Positions 23,440 to 31,069 of a stretch of 64,000 nucleotides of DNA are shown here, in pieces. Made by a program: the position numbers and the translations under genes. Within the stretch, counting starts at the first letter, position 1; each line of letters starts with the position of its first letter. The stretch lies in NCBI GenBank assembly GCA_934095865.1, contig CAKOKU010000001.1:10812-74811 (forward strand), given 5' to 3'. Origin of the DNA: an uncultured Bacilli bacterium. GTDB lineage: Bacteria; Bacillota_I; Bacilli_A; RF39; UBA660. The notes below the pieces were generated by a model. The model searched no databases, was not told the DNA's origin, and saw nothing but the letters and a program-made list of their open reading frames with translations.

Positions 23440-25095
23440 ATGAAAAAGTTAACTAGTTGTAGAAGAAAGGCGGCTTTTTTTCTTTCTTTATGTATAGTAA
23501 TTAATACTACTTGTTTTAGTTTGTTAGGTAATAAAAAAAGTGATGTAAAAAATAATGCTGGTATGGTTGAGGCTTTAGAGTATGAGGATACGATTGAAGC
23601 AACTGAGATTGACCAGCAAAAATGTTTGAAATTAATTGAAGAAATAAAAAGAATAAGCTTCAATGCCCAAGAAAAAACTTTATTAAGTGAAGCTGAACTT
23701 GATAGTTTTTTAAATAGAAAGACAGTTGGAGAATGTACTTATTCTTTTGATGGGGATTATACGGATATTCTGCGAGCTATTCGAGATAACTCACGGGCTT
23801 TTATAGATTCAGATAAAACTGCAAATTATCACTCTTTAGATGATGTTGATTACTTAAGAAGTTTAGGTAAATATGTTGATGTTAATGCCGAAGAAATGGC
23901 TTTATGGATTAATGAATGTTTGAAAAGTAGGATAAATAAAGTATTAGCGTCTGGAAATAAAGAACATATTCATAAATTAGCTTACTTAAAAATAGTTTTT
24001 AGGACTTTGCCAGAAGAAGAATTGGGTAATTATGATTCAGATAACAATACAATAGTTTTATCTATTCAGAATTTCTTAAAAAAATGTTTTATTAAAGATG
24101 ATTTTTATGCTGGTATTTATAATATTTTCAATCATGAAATTAATCATGCTTTTCAATACCCTTGTTCAGATATTTTAGAAATAAATGGTATTCAATATTG
24201 TGCCTTTTATAAAGAAAGTTCGGCTGAAAGTTATAATTGGTTAAAAAATCAATGCCCATATCAATCAAAAAATAAAAAATATAATTATACTTATGGATAT
24301 TTAGAAGAAAGAAAACATGAAGGAGATATTTTATTAATTAATTTTTTAGATACTTCTAAATCTTTAGATGGATATTATGATGTTATTTTTAACAATGATA
24401 TGTTAGGTCTTGGCAGTTATTTAGGCCTTGATTTTAGTCAAACAAAAGAATTAGTTTGTGCGATGTATTTAATGGATGCTGCAAGTTTAAGAAATAACTA
24501 TTGGCAACAGGCTTTTCATACTCAAGATTTAGCCAGTATTGATGCTAACATTGATAAAACAGTTGGAATGCTGGTTAATGGTGTTTCTGAAGGCGTGGTT
24601 TTAAAATTATCATTGACTAATTTATTAATGAAGACATTAGATGGCAGTGTAACATTAGAAGAAAATTTAGCCCTTTATTATTTCATTTTGGTTAATATAT
24701 TTGATTCAGTTTGTTATAGTGATTATGATTATGCCAATGAAATTTCAACAGTAACTTATTATCAAGAATTTTGTTCAAAGTATCAAATAATGCAGGAAAT
24801 TTATTTTGAATTTTTAAGTAATTATTATGGTGTAGATATTGATGAGATAGTTGAAATGTTCTCTGATATTATTAATAGTGATTTTTTGACTTGCCTTAGT
24901 GATTATGTTGAATATGATCAAGTAGATGATAGTAAGTATGGCATTTTGATTAAAAGATTAATGACTACTTATCCAACAATGTATTTTATTGCTAATGACG
25001 GGACGGTATTTTCTAATTTTAATATTGATAGTATTAGAATGCTATTAGCAGATAGCGCTATAAAAAGTAAATATTTAGTGTTAACTTTGGGGTAA
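23440..25095 (+). CDS. Exported HExxH protein, paralogue 1 (putative zinc metallopeptidase of an unrecognised family)
   Basis: N-terminal signal or lipoprotein-like peptide (FFLSLCIVINTTC). HEINH at 24133-24147. Colinear similarity to the next two genes. Confidence 0.6.
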   Translation: MKKLTSCRRKAAFFLSLCIVINTTCFSLLGNKKSDVKNNAGMVEALEYEDTIEATEIDQQKCLKLIEEIKRISFNAQEKTLLSEAELDSFLNRKTVGECTYSFDGDYTDILRAIRDNSRAFIDSDKTANYHSLDDVDYLRSLGKYVDVNAEEMALWINECLKSRINKVLASGNKEHIHKLAYLKIVFRTLPEEELGNYDSDNNTIVLSIQNFLKKCFIKDDFYAGIYNIFNHEINHAFQYPCSDILEINGIQYCAFYKESSAESYNWLKNQCPYQSKNKKYNYTYGYLEERKHEGDILLINFLDTSKSLDGYYDVIFNNDMLGLGSYLGLDFSQTKELVCAMYLMDAASLRNNYWQQAFHTQDLASIDANIDKTVGMLVNGVSEGVVLKLSLTNLLMKTLDGSVTLEENLALYYFILVNIFDSVCYSDYDYANEISTVTYYQEFCSKYQIMQEIYFEFLSNYYGVDIDEIVEMFSDIINSDFLTCLSDYVEYDQVDDSKYGILIKRLMTTYPTMYFIANDGTVFSNFNIDSIRMLLADSAIKSKYLVLTLG

Positions 25096-25154
25096 ATAAT
25101 ATTTTGACTTTTTAGAAAATTTCTTTATAATATAGCTTACGGAGGTTTTTAGCA

Positions 25155-26864
25155 TTGAATAATATGAAAAAAAGACTAACATCGTTATTATTGGTGTTCT
25201 GCATCACGGTAAGTAATACGGGATGTAAGGTCTTTAAGCGTGCTAAAAATGACATAGAACTTAATGATTCTAGTGTTTCAGTTAGTGATATTGAGGCTAG
25301 TAATACAGAATTAGAAATTGCCTTTAGAGAATTTGTATCTTCCTTAGATAAAGTCGATGGTGTTGATAAAAAAATCCATTTTACAAAAAAAGAAGAGATA
25401 GAAATAACTACTTTGACTCCAACTCATGCTTGTGTTTATGAGTTTACGGGAACTGGACTAGATTTAATTGAATTAATAGAACAAAATACTGGCGAGTATT
25501 TAGAAGCACATAGTGAATATAAGAGCTTTTTTGATGATAGTTATATGAGTGAGGAGTCTTATGTAAATTACTTTGGGTTGGAACTTAATGAAGATGATAT
25601 CAAAAGAGTAAAAGAAGTTATGGCTGATGCCTTATACAATAAAGTGTTGTATGTCTTAAATAATGATACTGATGATGATGTTCATAAGTTAGCAACTTTA
25701 AGCATTGTGTTTGTAGAAGACTTTGCTAATTCCAATAGCAACTTTAGAACATATGGCGTGTATGAAAATAGTGAGAATGTTATTAAGATTTCTTTAAAAA
25801 ATATTTTGGATAGTTCAAATAGCTATTTTCGGGTAATTCAATCAGCTTATAATGCTGCTGCTCATGAACTAAGTCATATTGATGATTATGCTTGCTCTGA
25901 TCGATTGTTAGCTGGTGATAACGAAAAGATAGATTTTTTGAATAGAGAGTTTGTATCTTCACTAAGAGAAGCTGAAAATTCTAGTTTTCAACAAAGTGGC
26001 ATGGTAGATAATCCTTGGCGTACTTATATGTCATCATCCGATTATTGTTATGATAGCTTTCGCCAATTTGAATCATGTTTATTTTTAACTAATGCTTTTG
26101 ATAAAGATAAGACAATTGCTGATTATTATTTAGCTTTTAAGAGTAGTGATTTATCAAAATTATATGAATATTTTTCTCTGATGACTAAAGAAGAGCAAAT
26201 AGAATTTATTAAAATAATTTATGCTTATGATGCCACTCAGGCCAGAAACAATTATGCAGCTAGTTTTACTAGTGAAGATGCTAAAGAAAGATATTGGCAA
26301 GTTGAAGATAGTTTAGAAAAAAGTTATTTTATTAGTATTTTAAAGATGGCCTTGATTAATTTGGCTCAATATAATGTTAATAATGAAGGGGATTTAAACT
26401 GTAAAGATAACTTGATGCTTTATTATTATATTATGATTACTATTGCAGATAATGCAGCTTTAGCTGATGTAGATAGTAATGGGGAGGCAGTAGTTTATTT
26501 TTATGATAGTTTTTGTCGTAATTATAAACAGATTGAGGAAAGCTTTTTCAGATTTTTAAGTGCTTGTTATGGAATGTCAGTGGAAGAAGTTCAAGAAATG
26601 TATAAAAAAACTTCAAGTGATGAATTACTGACTAAGATAAATAAGATAGATTGTTATGATGAAAATAAGTTAACAAGAATTGGTCGGCTTTTTGATAAGT
26701 TTAGCAATTTAAAGGTTGCTTTAAGAAGCCGAGATAAAGATATAGATACAGGGTTAATGATAGATAATATTTGGTTACAAGTTTTAGAGCAGCTTAATGA
26801 TTATGATGATGAAAAGCAAAATATATTAGGGTTAAATGTAGTAAGGAGAAATTATCATGAATAA
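25155..26864 (+). CDS. Lipoprotein with HExxH motif, paralogue 2
   Basis: Lipobox-like LLLVFCITVSNTGC. HELSH at 25863-25877. TTG start 9 nt after GGAGG (alternative ATG at 25164). Confidence 0.6.
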   Translation: MNNMKKRLTSLLLVFCITVSNTGCKVFKRAKNDIELNDSSVSVSDIEASNTELEIAFREFVSSLDKVDGVDKKIHFTKKEEIEITTLTPTHACVYEFTGTGLDLIELIEQNTGEYLEAHSEYKSFFDDSYMSEESYVNYFGLELNEDDIKRVKEVMADALYNKVLYVLNNDTDDDVHKLATLSIVFVEDFANSNSNFRTYGVYENSENVIKISLKNILDSSNSYFRVIQSAYNAAAHELSHIDDYACSDRLLAGDNEKIDFLNREFVSSLREAENSSFQQSGMVDNPWRTYMSSSDYCYDSFRQFESCLFLTNAFDKDKTIADYYLAFKSSDLSKLYEYFSLMTKEEQIEFIKIIYAYDATQARNNYAASFTSEDAKERYWQVEDSLEKSYFISILKMALINLAQYNVNNEGDLNCKDNLMLYYYIMITIADNAALADVDSNGEAVVYFYDSFCRNYKQIEESFFRFLSACYGMSVEEVQEMYKKTSSDELLTKINKIDCYDENKLTRIGRLFDKFSNLKVALRSRDKDIDTGLMIDNIWLQVLEQLNDYDDEKQNILGLNVVRRNYHE

Positions 26865-28602
26865 TAATATGAGTTATGGTGAAAAATCGATTGAAAAAAG
26901 AAGAAAACAAGAGGCTAAGAGAAATAAAATTTTAGGATCAATTGCTTTAGTGGTTGCTATTAATGTGGCTTTAGTAAGTGCTTATTTACATGGTGGTGTT
27001 GGTGCTGTCTTAGCAGCGGTCAAGAAAAATAAGAGTGAAGATGAAGAATCTGCAATTGCTTTAATGACAACTTCTGCTAGAGTTACTGGCGATGGTATTT
27101 CTGAGAATAATGATTTTAGTGAAATTTTATTTTTAAGTCAAAAAGAACAAGAAGAATTGTTAAGAAGAATTAATGATGGTTATCAAGATAAATGTACTTT
27201 TGAAAAAGAATGCAGTGCTGCTGATATAGTTAATACTATCATGAGTAATAGTGCTGATTTTGCTAGTAATCATCCTGGTTATTTATCACTATTTGATTAT
27301 GAAGGGTTAGCTTCTTATATTTTAACTAATGATATTGATATAGATGATTTTGATACGGCTATGAAAGCTATGACTACTGGGGTAATTTTTGTTGTTAAAG
27401 ATGCTTGTGCCAAATATGATGATGGTGTGATTGGCTCTAAAAGTGATATTCACAATTTAATGGATGTAAAGTTGGTACTAGATATTGAAGGTAAGAATCA
27501 AGTTGATGATGTTAATTGTATTGCCATTGACTATAAAGGTATTACTAGCCAAATAGAGGATAATCAACAGAAAAAGGTTGTTTATAATAGCGCTTTTATG
27601 GAATTAATGATTAGTAAACTTACTCGTATTATTCAACGTGATTGTCCTGAGTATGGAGCCGAGTCTAAAGTGTTGACTTATGATAGTGAGGTAGTTCCTT
27701 TTATACTAGATACTAGTACTATAAGTGTAATACCTAATTATTATGGTATAACATTGTCTAATAATTTTGATAAGACTTTACTTTTTGAAAGAAATGCTGA
27801 AGCCAAGCTTCTATTGCTTACTTTATTTGATAGAGATAAAGATATAAGTTGGTATTATAATGCTATAAATAAAAATGATTTAGCGAGCTTTTGTGAATAT
27901 TTTGGAGCTAATAGTAGTGAAGAACAACTTAGATTGTTTAATTTAATTGCCTCATATGATGCGGTTTATATGAGAAATTCTTATTATAAGAAAGTTAGAA
28001 ATATGCTTGATTTAACTGATTATACATCTTATGCTAAGGAAAAATTGGCTCAAAGAGTAGAAGATAAAATTGATTTTAGTAATGATGCTACTATTTTAGG
28101 TATTGCTATTGATAAAATGATTACAGATGCTAATAGCCACGCAGATTTGAGCATGATAGATTATTTTGACTTATTTGATTTTGTTTCTAGTGTTGCTTTT
28201 GCTGATACTTATTCTTCAGATAGTACTATGTCATTTGACGTATCTGATACTTTAATTGCCAAATATTTTGAACTTAAAGATAAATTTATTAAATCTATGG
28301 CAGTAAGATATGATTGTTCATTGGAAGATGCTTTAAACGCTTATGAAAATAATCGTCATAATTCATTATTTTTCTCATCTTTAGCTTATAAATCCGGTAG
28401 TGTTTATTATGATCCATCTGTTAGCTTGGACGATTATCCTTTCTTAGCAGATCAATACAGCTCTTCAAAAGGTGTATGTGATGATCTTTTAAAAGTATTT
28501 GGCAATTTAGATGATATTGCTAGATTATGTCCTAACTTTTATAAAGGCGTTCCAGAAAATGTTTTAGAATCTGGTAAAAAATTAAATAAAGATTTAAATT
28601 AA
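26857..28602 (+). CDS. Membrane-anchored paralogue 3 with degenerate metal site (MELMI in place of HExxH)
   Basis: Overlaps the upstream gene by 8 nt (AAGGAG RBS). N-terminal TM ILGSIALVVAINVALVSAYL without a lipobox Cys. MELMI at 27598-27612 aligns with the HExxH of its paralogues. Confidence 0.6.
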   Translation: MNNNMSYGEKSIEKRRKQEAKRNKILGSIALVVAINVALVSAYLHGGVGAVLAAVKKNKSEDEESAIALMTTSARVTGDGISENNDFSEILFLSQKEQEELLRRINDGYQDKCTFEKECSAADIVNTIMSNSADFASNHPGYLSLFDYEGLASYILTNDIDIDDFDTAMKAMTTGVIFVVKDACAKYDDGVIGSKSDIHNLMDVKLVLDIEGKNQVDDVNCIAIDYKGITSQIEDNQQKKVVYNSAFMELMISKLTRIIQRDCPEYGAESKVLTYDSEVVPFILDTSTISVIPNYYGITLSNNFDKTLLFERNAEAKLLLLTLFDRDKDISWYYNAINKNDLASFCEYFGANSSEEQLRLFNLIASYDAVYMRNSYYKKVRNMLDLTDYTSYAKEKLAQRVEDKIDFSNDATILGIAIDKMITDANSHADLSMIDYFDLFDFVSSVAFADTYSSDSTMSFDVSDTLIAKYFELKDKFIKSMAVRYDCSLEDALNAYENNRHNSLFFSSLAYKSGSVYYDPSVSLDDYPFLADQYSSSKGVCDDLLKVFGNLDDIARLCPNFYKGVPENVLESGKKLNKDLN

Positions 28603-28630
28603 AATAATATTTATTTTGTTTCTATTTGAA

Positions 28631-28661
28631 TATCTGTTTTTAAAAAGACAGGTATTTTTTT
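28631..28661 (+). terminator. Rho-independent terminator candidate
   Basis: TATCTGTTTTT / AAAAAGACAGGTA imperfect stem followed by TTTTTTT. Confidence 0.45.
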
Positions 28662-28695
28662 CTGCTTAATGGATATAATATATAATCTTTTTTTG

Positions 28696-28720
28696 TTCAT
28701 AGAGTTACATACTCTATGAA
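28696..28720. repeat. Perfect 10-bp-stem hairpin, copy A (TTCATAGAGT-TACAT-ACTCTATGAA)
   Basis: The 25-nt sequence recurs as its exact reverse complement at 28958-28982. Confidence 0.9.
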
Positions 28721-28816
28721 TACGTAATTACGTGCATCTATTCTTAATTTCTATTGTAATTTTACCATATTTTAAACACTTTTGGTACCTAATAAAATGC
28801 TTTTTAGTGTAAATTA

Positions 28817-28924
28817 TAGTCAATTTTGTAGTCAAAAAATTTGGATAAATCAGTTAAAAATACTTAAATGAAATGGGATTTAATAAAAATCTAAATAAAT
28901 AATTTTTAGTCAAATTTATAGTCA
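28817..28924 (+). repeat. Two pairs of TAGTCA direct repeats, each pair with 12-nt register
   Basis: TAGTCA at 28817, 28829, 28907 and 28919. GTACCTAAT direct repeat at 28785 and 28946. Confidence 0.8.
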
Positions 28925-28957
28925 GATTACTGTTTTAATTAGTGAGTACCTAATGTT

Positions 28958-28982
28958 TTCATAGAGTATGTAACTCTATGAA
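28958..28982. repeat. Hairpin copy B (TTCATAGAGT-ATGTA-ACTCTATGAA), reverse complement of copy A
   Basis: Identical stem with the loop inverted relative to copy A. The two copies are separated by 237 nt. Confidence 0.9.
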
Positions 28983-29062
28983 AAGTACACTTTAAGAAAA
29001 CAAAAAGCGACAAAAGCATAGATTTCTTAATTTATGGAATAATAAATATGAAAGGGATTATT

Positions 29063-31069
29063 ATGAAGAATAAGAAATTATGGTTAGTTGGTACTCTAAG
29101 TATATTTGGCTTGGCTTTGATTATTGGAACATCGTATGCGTATTGGCGATTTAGTAAAATCAGTGATGGTAGTAATGCTGCCTTGTCTGGATGTTTTAGT
29201 GTATCACTTTCTAATGAAGCTAATGCTATAAGTTTGGAAAATGCTTATCCAATAAGTGATGAAGATGGCAAGAAACTAAAGCCATATAGCTTTACAATAA
29301 CTAATACTTGTAGTATTTTTGCTAAATATTATGTTAATTTAGAAATGCTTGAAGGTACAACTTTAAATAGTAAATATGTTGCAGTAAGGGTTAATAATGA
29401 GAATATTCAATTACTTAGTGAATTTAATGAAGATACAAATAAAAGCTTATCTACGAGTACAGAAGCAAGGACTTTAGCTACTGGGTATTTAGGCTCTGGT
29501 GATTCAATAGATTATAGTGTAGCTTTTTGGATGGATGAAAGTGTTACTATTAATGATACCGATGCAATGAATAAGAATTTTAAAAGTAAGATTATGGTAA
29601 AAGCAGAACCTAGTAGTTATTCACCAGTTGATTCTGGGTATAACACATTGCATGATGCCATTTTAGCTAATGAATATCAAACGACACCAGAGATTGCAAT
29701 TGAGAAAATCAAGGCTAAGCAAAGTTCTAGTATAACAGATAATGGTGATGGGACTTATACAGTGACTAATACAGCCCCGATTATTAAGTGGACATCTGTT
29801 ATAGGTGATGCTGTTACGAAAGATATTGTTAAACCATCGATTGATGCGATTAAATCAGATTCTCAAACTGTTGACTTGACTGAAAACGATGTTAAGTTGA
29901 AATTTTATAAAAATATTTCGTTTAATACAGATACAGGAAAGTATACTTTATCTGATCCTATTTATGTTGAACCAGATTTATTAAGCTATGATGAATCGAC
30001 TCATTATTATTTTAAAAATGAATATATATCATATAATTATTCGACCAAAAAGTTGTATACCGTTGTAGAAAATGATGGTATAAGTGTATATGAAGTAACT
30101 GGTGCATATAAAACTGATACAAAAACTATTTGGAATGGCATCGAATATTCTGCATTAAATTATAAATTGTCTTTAGTGACTATGACTGAATCAGAATTAG
30201 AAACAGATAAGTCTGACAAAGGCTTGTATGCTGGTACAGATGATTATGGTACAACCTACTATTATAGAGGAAATGTAAAAAATAATAATGTTTATTTTGC
30301 TGGCTATTATTGGCAAGTAGTAAGAATAAATGGTGATGGTTCAATTAGATTAATGTATAATGGACAAGTAAAAAATGCGTCTGGTATTGACCAATCGATT
30401 AACAATAAATTATATCAATTTAATGTTTCTTATAATTCCCCTGCATATGTAGGTTATATGTATGGAGATATAAATGCTTCAAATTTTGAAGCTGTTCATA
30501 AAAATGAAAATTCATCTACTGTGAAAAAGGTTATTGATTCTTGGTATACGAGTAATATTGTTAAAAATGATTATTCAAGTTATGTATCCATCAACGCTGG
30601 TTTTTGTGGAGATAGAAGTATTTATAGCGGTGATGGTATTAAAATTGATAAATCTACGGCATTTAGTTCTTTGTGGCGTCGTTTGAATCAAATTTTTCAA
30701 TTTAAGTGTTCTAATATGAACAATGATTTGTATACTGCCTCTGAATCAAATATAGGTAATAAATCTTTAACATATCCAGTAGGTTTAGTGACGTATGACG
30801 AATTGGTTTTAGCAGGTTTAAACGATCAGCAATTAAATAAGTTATCTTACGCATATTCTTCACAAAATTATTGGACTATGACGCCTGGTAGTTTCAGTTC
30901 AACATTTGGGTATGCTTATGCGTGGCGTAGTGACAATCCTGGTTTTCTTTCATATCGTTGGGTAAATATGAGTAATAGTGTTCGTCCTGTTATTAACTTA
31001 AAGGCCGACGTTGAAATAACTGAAGGCATAGGTACGGCCAATGACCCTTATGTAATAAAAACAGAATAA
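29063..31069 (+). CDS. Large secreted protein: SipW-type signal peptide, TasA/camelysin-like N-terminal domain, C-terminal surface domain
   Basis: MKNKKLWLVGTLSIFGLALIIGTSYAYW matches the GT-x-AYF SipW-cognate signal class. ENAYPISD...YSFTITNTCSIFAKYYVNL resembles the TasA/M73 beta-sandwich. The C-terminus YWTMTP...VRPVINLKADVEITEGIGTANDPYVI resembles a DUF6273-like surface domain (from memory). Start at 29063 (AAAGGGA RBS); 29048 is the alternative. Confidence 0.6.
   Translation: MKNKKLWLVGTLSIFGLALIIGTSYAYWRFSKISDGSNAALSGCFSVSLSNEANAISLENAYPISDEDGKKLKPYSFTITNTCSIFAKYYVNLEMLEGTTLNSKYVAVRVNNENIQLLSEFNEDTNKSLSTSTEARTLATGYLGSGDSIDYSVAFWMDESVTINDTDAMNKNFKSKIMVKAEPSSYSPVDSGYNTLHDAILANEYQTTPEIAIEKIKAKQSSSITDNGDGTYTVTNTAPIIKWTSVIGDAVTKDIVKPSIDAIKSDSQTVDLTENDVKLKFYKNISFNTDTGKYTLSDPIYVEPDLLSYDESTHYYFKNEYISYNYSTKKLYTVVENDGISVYEVTGAYKTDTKTIWNGIEYSALNYKLSLVTMTESELETDKSDKGLYAGTDDYGTTYYYRGNVKNNNVYFAGYYWQVVRINGDGSIRLMYNGQVKNASGIDQSINNKLYQFNVSYNSPAYVGYMYGDINASNFEAVHKNENSSTVKKVIDSWYTSNIVKNDYSSYVSINAGFCGDRSIYSGDGIKIDKSTAFSSLWRRLNQIFQFKCSNMNNDLYTASESNIGNKSLTYPVGLVTYDELVLAGLNDQQLNKLSYAYSSQNYWTMTPGSFSSTFGYAYAWRSDNPGFLSYRWVNMSNSVRPVINLKADVEITEGIGTANDPYVIKTE

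Follow-up and report, generated by a model that had tools for sequence, protein, structure and literature searches.

How is a surface-protein gene controlled when the non-coding gap in front of it carries two mirrored copies of one 25-nt sequence? The question is posed by a 64,000-nt stretch of DNA from an uncultured Bacilli bacterium (assembly GCA_934095865.1, contig CAKOKU010000001.1, positions 10,812 to 74,811 of the forward strand), which was analysed at its full length and is referred to here as the window. The two sequences, TTCATAGAGTTACATACTCTATGAA at 28696-28720 and TTCATAGAGTATGTAACTCTATGAA at 28958-28982, are exact reverse complements of each other with 237 nt between them, and are followed by a surface-protein gene at 29063. 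An initial annotation of the window, made from its letters alone, had described them as inverted repeats and offered four readings of the region, namely an invertible promoter, a miniature inverted-repeat transposable element (MITE), a structured small RNA or an operator array for a regulator that binds direct repeats. Our analysis points to the first of these: 28696-28982 is very probably a site-specific DNA inversion switch (inverton) for the gene at 29063.

In the mechanism that we propose, the two 25-bp sequences would serve as core recombination sites in inverted orientation, each composed of two 9-bp recombinase-binding arms and an asymmetric 7-bp crossover spacer. A tyrosine recombinase would pair the sites, swap strands within the matching spacers and flip the 237 bp that they enclose. 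An outward-reading extended -10 promoter, located some 40-50 bp inside one end of the segment, would face away from the gene in the assembled state, leaving it OFF, and would switch the gene ON by transcription through the proximal site once the segment is inverted.

Core sites, spacer matching and flipped loci

The mirrored pattern occurs once in the window and in none of 100 shuffles of it, which bears out the exact 25-nt repeats enclosing 237 nt that the initial annotation had reported. The features of the locus, with strand where one applies, are as follows.

28628-28661, plus strand: terminator-like hairpin and T-run at the 3' end of the upstream gene of 581 amino acids (aa), outside the switch
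28696-28720: gene-distal core site, with arm TTCATAGAG (28696-28704), spacer TTACATA (28705-28711) and arm CTCTATGAA (28712-28720)
28721-28957: proposed invertible segment of 237 bp; orthologous loci are flipped exactly between the sites
28722-28733: 12-bp palindrome ACGTAATTACGT directly inside the distal site; family consensus CGAAATTTCG, position conserved
28759-28767, minus strand: putative extended -10 element TGGTAAAAT, facing away from the downstream gene; predicted transcription start at ~28752
28817-28834, plus strand: first TAGTCA-N6-TAGTCA pair, putative arm-type recombinase-binding sites; degenerate third repeat TAGTGT at 28804
28907-28924, plus strand: second TAGTCA-N6-TAGTCA pair, putative arm-type recombinase-binding sites
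28958-28982: gene-proximal core site, with spacer TATGTAA, the reverse complement of the distal spacer
28983-29062, plus strand: fixed 5' leader, with conserved box AAGTACACTTTAAGAAAAC (28983-29001), TTCTTAATTT (29024-29033) and ribosome-binding site AAAGGGA
29063-31069, plus strand: proposed regulated gene, encoding a ~668-aa exported or membrane-anchored protein of no known domain

A search of the whole genome (1.2 Mb in 36 contigs, 28% G+C, 79% complete), for which the initial annotation had called, recovered six site pairs with a spacing of 262-265 bp, the other five being located at C1:122584-122871, C5:11450-11736, C5:86089-86378, C7:30473-30762 and C6:39718-40005. The centres of the six pairs differ (TTACATA, TTATATA, TTTCTAA, TTGCATA, CTAAATA and CTACAAA), and those of two partners are always mutual reverse complements. 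In the copies with CTAAATA and CTACAAA, positions 10 and 16 are non-complementary within the site and still mirrored between the partners. Because these positions mirror between partners and not within a site, each 25-nt sequence is best read, from its letters, as 9-bp arms TTCATAGAG and CTCTATGAA around an asymmetric 7-bp spacer, a core site of the tyrosine-recombinase type. The description of the 25-mers as hairpins with a 5-nt loop was thus right about their inverted symmetry and wrong about their parsing. Both can be folded as hairpins, with free energies (dG) of -14.4 and -13.5 kcal/mol, and neither is followed by a T-tract on the plus strand, as had been noted; the hairpin shape is a by-product of the protein-binding symmetry of the sites.

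In the core sites of tyrosine recombinases (the 9-7-9 core of lambda, loxP and FRT), the spacer is the region of strand exchange, where it matches between partners and sets the orientation, and core sites in inverted orientation lead to inversion. Within the genome of the window the arms are perfect in 21 of 24 cases and the spacers exact in all six pairs. Across a larger collection of 119 distinct pairs, which was drawn from genomes of the genus and from loci found in a scan of the genomes of 185,579 species and represents a lower bound for the genus, the spacers are reverse-complementary in 116, and 39 spacer variants are found. Given this number of variants, random pairing would be expected to match spacers ~5% of the time. 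The lengths of the 119 units are bimodal, falling at 277-280 bp or at 287-291 bp with none between, and the step of ~11 bp, about one helical turn, suggests helical phasing of the core sites relative to the internal repeats.

Allowing at most one mismatch, 13 of the 17 genomes from the same genus contain the core site, with 74 sites in one of them, and it is absent from all 44 genomes sampled from 43 other genera. The richest genome of the genus carries ~37 pairs in roughly 1.9 Mb, so that the density of switches rises from ~1 per 200 kb in the genome of the window to ~1 per 40-50 kb in the richest relatives. The scan of 185,579 species found the site in Mycoplasma sp. CAG:956, in the uncultured Tenericutes UMGS735 and in "uncultured Bacilli" from the Hadza gut, together with scattered single matches, possibly due to chance, and three informative pairs in Clostridia and Lachnospiraceae. 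Two of these three, L132:6653-7248 and L069:4250-5394 (Lachnospiraceae), have the same core arms around segments of 0.57 and 1.1 kb beside outward-reading operons, the former adjoining a glycosyltransferase operon. The third, L053:3906-5396, from the Clostridia genome RGIG2197 (goat colon), has identical arms with spacers TAAACCC and GGGTTTA and encloses a segment of 1.4 kb. In other genera of the same family (G104, G108 and G133) a variant core, TCATAAAG-N7-CTTTATGA, is set in the same architecture, with a spacing of 265-282 bp, reverse-complementary spacers and the TAGTCA pairs retained.

Comparison of loci indicates that the segment between such sites is found in both orientations. In L056 and L150, from two genomes, the flanks are collinear and ~95% identical by eye, and the inter-site segment is reverse-complemented, with the breaks exactly at the sites. 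Where two units have both flanks in common, the segment is flipped in 8 of 21 comparisons, which corresponds to four independent loci. Scored against a lone adjacent gene that reads outward, 82 units share the state of the window and 12 show the opposite one; a further 15 units are flanked by genes on both sides. In addition, at least 16 unpaired sites in relatives lie within 250 bp of true contig ends, five of them within 4 bp, and contigs that end on sites are what an assembler yields when a sample contains both orientations. For the window locus, a look-up by its 673-aa protein found no other assembly on record, and scans of metagenomes gave no match either to its fixed junction (the proximal site with the right flank) or to the ON-state junction of this locus and its closest paralogues. 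Flipping is probably still ongoing in this strain.

Regulated genes, promoter and switch state

Every one of the six site pairs lies directly 5' of a large open reading frame, and the products of these genes are paralogous. With the downstream gene as the reference for direction, the six elements all line up the same way and share the same order, in which the two sites enclose a 10-12-bp palindrome just inward of the distal site, an ATTTTAYCATA box and both TAGTCA-N6-TAGTCA pairs, with AAGTACACTTTAAGAAAAC retained outside the proximal site. At some loci a second copy of the palindrome is found outside the proximal site. The arms are intact and the inner segments are 57-67% identical among copies, except for one recent duplicate pair at 94%. 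Target-site duplications were found at none of the six.

The genome encodes seven paralogues of the regulated protein, six of which stand directly behind a switch. Five have ~670-700 aa and a mutual identity of 54-76%; four of these directly follow a switch and the fifth (679 aa) follows a 677-aa gene that is itself behind the second switch. Over their C-terminal ~320 aa, the two remaining paralogues, of 445 aa, are related to the large ones with 36-39% identity. A hydrophobic anchor or signal is present at the N-terminus of every member, and the family gave no match in Pfam, NCBIfam or the PDB sequences. The start codon of the window copy is most likely the ATG at 29063 rather than 29048, so that the gap in front of it, correctly recognised as non-coding by the initial annotation, measures ~460 nt and not the 445 nt given there.

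The ATTTTAYCATA box is kept in all six copies and on the minus strand reads as the putative extended -10 element TGGTAAAAT (28767-28759); across the genus the consensus is TGgTATATT, preceded by TTTAAA at a distance of 17 nt. At the equivalent place, L132 and L069 have a near-consensus promoter, TTGACA-17-TATCAT or TTGACA-17-TATGAT, that faces away from the adjacent operon. On this motif evidence the window copy is probably OFF, with its promoter facing away from the gene, and inversion would bring the promoter to ~135 nt upstream of the start codon.

Some further observations concern what is transcribed in either state. In four copies (C1:122584, C5:11450, C5:86089 and C7:30762) the distal site is followed, in the direction of the OFF promoter, by a run of 6-7 U, and this hairpin with its U-run would terminate OFF-state transcripts there; it is absent from the window copy. 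At C6:39718-40005, the switch in front of a gene for a 707-aa surface protein, the putative OFF-state promoter faces a 350-aa gene on the other side, and this switch may alternate between two targets. In the window, TTCTTAATTT occurs a short way inward of the distal site (28741-28750) and is directly repeated in the fixed 5' untranslated region (UTR; 29024-29033). With the segment inverted, the start of the transcript could therefore base-pair with the UTR, immediately in front of the ribosome-binding site. The similarity between leader and UTR is greater within a locus than across loci (p = 3e-5). Fold tests of this pairing were mixed, the duplex being favoured in five of six copies and present in the best fold of only two.

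Upstream of the switch, the separate terminator-like hairpin of the initial annotation is real, with a 13-bp stem at 28628-28657 (dG -11.3 kcal/mol, z -3.6) and a T-run behind it. Three genes at 23440-28602, which encode proteins of 551, 569 and 581 aa that are distant paralogues (24-30% identity) with no Pfam match, end at this terminator and lie outside the switch. A 9-nt direct repeat, GTACCTAAT, is indeed present at 28785-28793 and 28946-28954, as had been noted, but is conserved in no paralogous copy and is most likely due to chance.

Candidate recombinase and the TAGTCA pairs

The genome contains four intact tyrosine recombinases and five large serine recombinases. Among these, we consider it likely that the switches are run by a 357-aa enzyme related to the integrases (Int) of Tn916 and lambda and encoded at G000:C10:3833-4906. 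Within the genus, orthologues of 74-77% identity occur in 10 of the 13 genomes that bear sites and in none of the four that lack them (Fisher p = 0.015), and in six of the ten the gene lies 160-250 bp from a switch. The adjacent switch serves a divergent gene of the 445-aa family and is separated from the recombinase gene by a terminator and that gene's own TGCTATAAT promoter, which rules out control of the recombinase by the switch and leaves linkage only. The gene itself is chromosomal, lying between housekeeping genes with no mobile element around it, both here and in homologues of 53% identity.

Homologues of the enzyme accompany the repeats or sites elsewhere. In G068 and G093 they abut TAGTCA pairs, in G104 an internally deleted remnant of the gene lies 50 bp from a core site, and in L053 a 383-aa homologue (36% identity, E 5e-76) lies inside the 1.4-kb segment between the core sites, so that the recombinase gene itself appears to be invertible there. 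For a 53%-identical homologue in another lineage, no obvious switch was found adjoining.

The 357-aa enzyme matches PF00589 (Phage_integrase, E 6e-25) and, in its core-binding domain, PF14659 (Phage_int_SAM_3, E 6e-9). Residues R195, K231, H304, R307, H330 and Y340 are invariant or nearly so in the alignment of the family and, judged by their motifs, would form the catalytic set of a tyrosine recombinase. The best matches in sequence and fold are to Tn1549 Int, over residues 82-397 in the fold comparison, and full-length lambda Int is also matched. The predicted model (mean predicted local distance difference test, pLDDT, 89.7) contains an extra N-terminal module at residues 8-61, comprising strands 8-10, 16-25 and 28-36 and helix 39-61 (pLDDT 71-93), in which the motif RKGESIFKRKDGRYEARYIK is conserved across the recombinase family.

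The other enzymes were set aside. For the 285-aa tyrosine recombinase at C3:48184-49041, none of the 16 other genomes of the genus contains an orthologue, and the enzyme probably belongs to a mobile element peculiar to this strain. Matches of ~25% identity, which probably represent counterparts of the two Xer-like enzymes on C4, occur in all genomes of the genus, site-bearing and site-free alike; these two are probably the housekeeping enzymes, and a helper role is possible for them. The serine recombinases are all large and do not fit the geometry of the sites, and a serine invertase of the Hin/Gin type was rejected for the odd length of the site and its asymmetric 7-bp centre.

How a single enzyme might act on such sites turns attention to the repeats between them. 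The TAGTCA pairs that the initial annotation placed at 28817/28829 and 28907/28919, in a 12-nt register, are present in the window and conserved in the six genome copies and across the genus, where the consensus comprises up to five repeats in one direction, with two tandem pairs in a 12-bp register. Pairs of TAGTCA/TTGAC in this register persist in the genera with the variant core TCATAAAG-N7-CTTTATGA, and the same register recurs in the TTGAC(C/G)-N6-TTGACGG pairs of L132 and L069 and in the TGACG pairs of L053. Since the repeats occur before unrelated genes and in other lineages, their distribution tracks that of the sites and the enzyme family rather than that of the regulated gene. Of the operator-array reading, protein binding to TAGTCA therefore survives as very probable, and a gene-specific regulator does not.

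What the pairs bind is close to an even call. We lean, tentatively, towards arm-type recombinase sites because there are four repeats for four protomers, because the candidate enzyme has an extra N-terminal domain, and because the units fall into length classes that differ by a helical turn. Under this proposal the N-terminal domain would bind the TAGTCA pairs and help to assemble the synapse on sites in cis. A somewhat more doubtful possibility, which would leave the switch itself real, is that the repeats are -35-like promoter elements, or sites of a separate transcription factor or DNA-bending protein. The promoter strand reads TTGACTA, within which TTGACT is a good -35 hexamer, a promoter scan lists TTGACT-18-TACACT on the minus strand, and all of the repeats face the same way as the putative promoter. 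Moreover, the N-terminal domain gave no significant match to an arm-binding fold: its resemblance to the arm-binding domain of Tn916 Int is weak and not significant (E 0.18-0.46), and when searched alone it had no significant Foldseek match and no Pfam match. Against promoter elements, the near-consensus promoter of the Lachnospiraceae loci, TTGACA-17-TATCAT, is distinct from the TTGAC pairs and lies hundreds of bases away from them, at the opposite end of the segment; four to five repeats arranged as two tandem pairs 12 bp apart are unlike a promoter layout, and it is the core sites and the recombinase family that the repeats accompany, not the regulated gene.

Alternatives, known systems and significance

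The invertible-promoter reading is supported by the covariation of the spacers, by loci found in both orientations, by contig breaks at the sites and by a linked recombinase. Several observations weigh against it, in addition to the weak match of the N-terminal domain. The six copies in the genome share one state, and no contig of its assembly ends at a site. The promoter was called from the conservation of its motif, and a generic promoter scan in this AT-rich DNA performed no better than on shuffled sequence. Spacers repeat within the richer genomes, and spacer identity alone is therefore insufficient to insulate loci from one another. Three site-bearing genomes (58-89% complete) and G133 are without an orthologue of the recombinase, and G104 has only a deleted remnant (L231, G104:C13:32257-32739), in which 161 aa remain in frame, the N-terminal domain being fused to the last ~80 residues, with a core site 50 bp upstream. 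Either the switches of G104 are frozen or a second copy of its recombinase was left unbinned.

These points bear most directly on the idea that the switches are relics in this strain, in which past inversion has left six genes fixed in one state. The common orientation of the six copies, the absence of contig breaks at sites in the assembly and the decay of the recombinase in G104, where the sites remain, would all fit. We nevertheless regard it as unlikely, as the recombinase gene in the genome of the window is undamaged, retains every catalytic residue and has a promoter of its own, as 21 of 24 arms and all six spacer pairs are preserved, and as a majority-OFF consensus is expected from a population with rare ON cells.

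Readings without recombination fare considerably worse. That the 25-mers are palindromic operators of a dimeric, looping transcription factor would agree with perfect inverted arms of 9-10 bp and with two copies flanking a promoter region, but is very improbable, since it predicts neither a centre that is mirrored in 116 of 119 pairs and variable among loci, nor orthologous loci that are flipped exactly at the sites, nor contigs that end there. A MITE spread through the genome, to which the terminal inverted repeats of the 287-bp unit, the six copies and the hundreds in relatives might point, is equally hard to credit: there are no target-site duplications, the copies stand at one position and in one orientation 5' of a single paralogous family with the right flank conserved, the inner segments have diverged to 57-67% identity around invariant arms, the spacers are pair-specific and no transposase is associated. 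A structured small RNA or riboregulator acting through its hairpins, despite the stability of both 25-mers and the favourable duplex of the predicted ON-state leader with the UTR in five of six copies, finds no Rfam match at E <= 1, is met by mixed full-length fold tests and is contradicted by variation that lies in the loop rather than the stem and covaries between the hairpins and not within either of them, the hairpins following from site symmetry, and has scarcely any credence left.

Among described systems, the closest analogue in logic is mpl (P35) of Mycoplasma penetrans, where a small low-GC genome carries many paralogous surface genes, each with a short invertible promoter, and a chromosomal tyrosine recombinase flips these promoters to give combinatorial surface variation. 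The mpl repeats are 12 bp, the segment is ~135 bp, the recombinases are Xer-like and the regulated proteins are unrelated, whereas the system described here has 25-bp 9-7-9 sites, a 237-241-bp segment with TAGTCA pairs and a three-domain candidate of the Tn916/lambda-Int type. Similarly, in the fimS switch of E. coli a tyrosine recombinase (FimB or FimE) flips a promoter segment of ~300 bp for a surface structure with the help of accessory protein sites; fimS differs in its 9-bp repeats, its small two-domain recombinases encoded alongside, its host factors IHF and Lrp and its single locus. The symmetric arms and an asymmetric, orienting spacer that must match are shared with Cre/loxP and FLP/FRT, in which differing spacers do not cross-react. 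Those sites, however, have 13-bp arms and 8-bp spacers and no accessory sites; their variants are engineered, and they do not serve natural promoter switching.

The layout of 9-bp core arms with a 7-bp overlap is that of lambda. The predicted fold of the recombinase likewise matches the integrases of lambda and Tn1549 (PDB 1Z1B and 6EMY), its model has an extra N-terminal domain of β-sheet and helix, and the short direct repeats located away from the core resemble arm-type sites. Lambda Int and the related heterobivalent integrases of Tn916 and Tn1549 integrate and excise mobile elements, whereas the candidate here is chromosomal, its sites are set for inversion at many loci and its arm binding is putative.

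Descriptions of promoter-inversion phase variation, a well-known phenomenon, come mainly from Bacteroidota, Enterobacteria, C. difficile and mycoplasmas. Invertons of gut bacteria, such as those of Bacteroides capsule and surface promoters and of cwpV and the flagellar genes in C. difficile, are likewise promoter segments between inverted repeats at many loci. They too lie upstream of genes for surface structures and are flipped by site-specific recombinases (PMC11892184, PMC11602134). The site sequence, the motif set and the lineage are not mentioned in these two inverton surveys, and the median number of invertons per genome in Bacillus-like Firmicutes is 0 (PMC11892184), in contrast to up to ~37 pairs per genome in the genus studied here. 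In the literature searched, the site sequence was not found in this context, nor were heterobivalent integrases found linked to phase-variable inversion. The element is thus an inverton in kind, which differs from others in its variable-spacer 9-7-9 site, its internal repeat pairs, an integrase-type enzyme without a mobile element and the density of switches in a genome of ~1.2-1.9 Mb.

Whether this represents a heterobivalent integrase of the lambda/Tn916 type, domesticated as a genome-wide invertase of up to ~37 switches that each have their own arm-type sites, is a proposal that we put forward as possible, with less assurance than its parts. Four protomers could bridge four arm sites and four core half-sites, such that an intasome would form only on sites in cis, and this cis assembly, together with variable 7-bp crossover "barcodes", would keep dozens of sites with identical arms from recombining with one another. 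The same family of sites and enzymes would, on the domestication proposal, also drive promoter and gene inversions in Clostridia and Lachnospiraceae. If this is true, the genus would have a natural, compact system in which one enzyme serves many independent switches, and which might be a source of orthogonal recombination sites for synthetic biology.

Taken together, the 9-7-9 core, the variable spacers, the repeat pairs and the integrase-like enzyme suggest a way in which many independent switches could be served by one recombinase while the chromosome stays unscrambled. The switch sites also explain many of the contig breaks in genomes assembled from these organisms, and the repertoire of surface proteins deduced from an assembly would fall short of what is expressed by individual cells. 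For an uncultured gut lineage with a small genome and many such switches, surface variation is probably central to persistence in the human gut.

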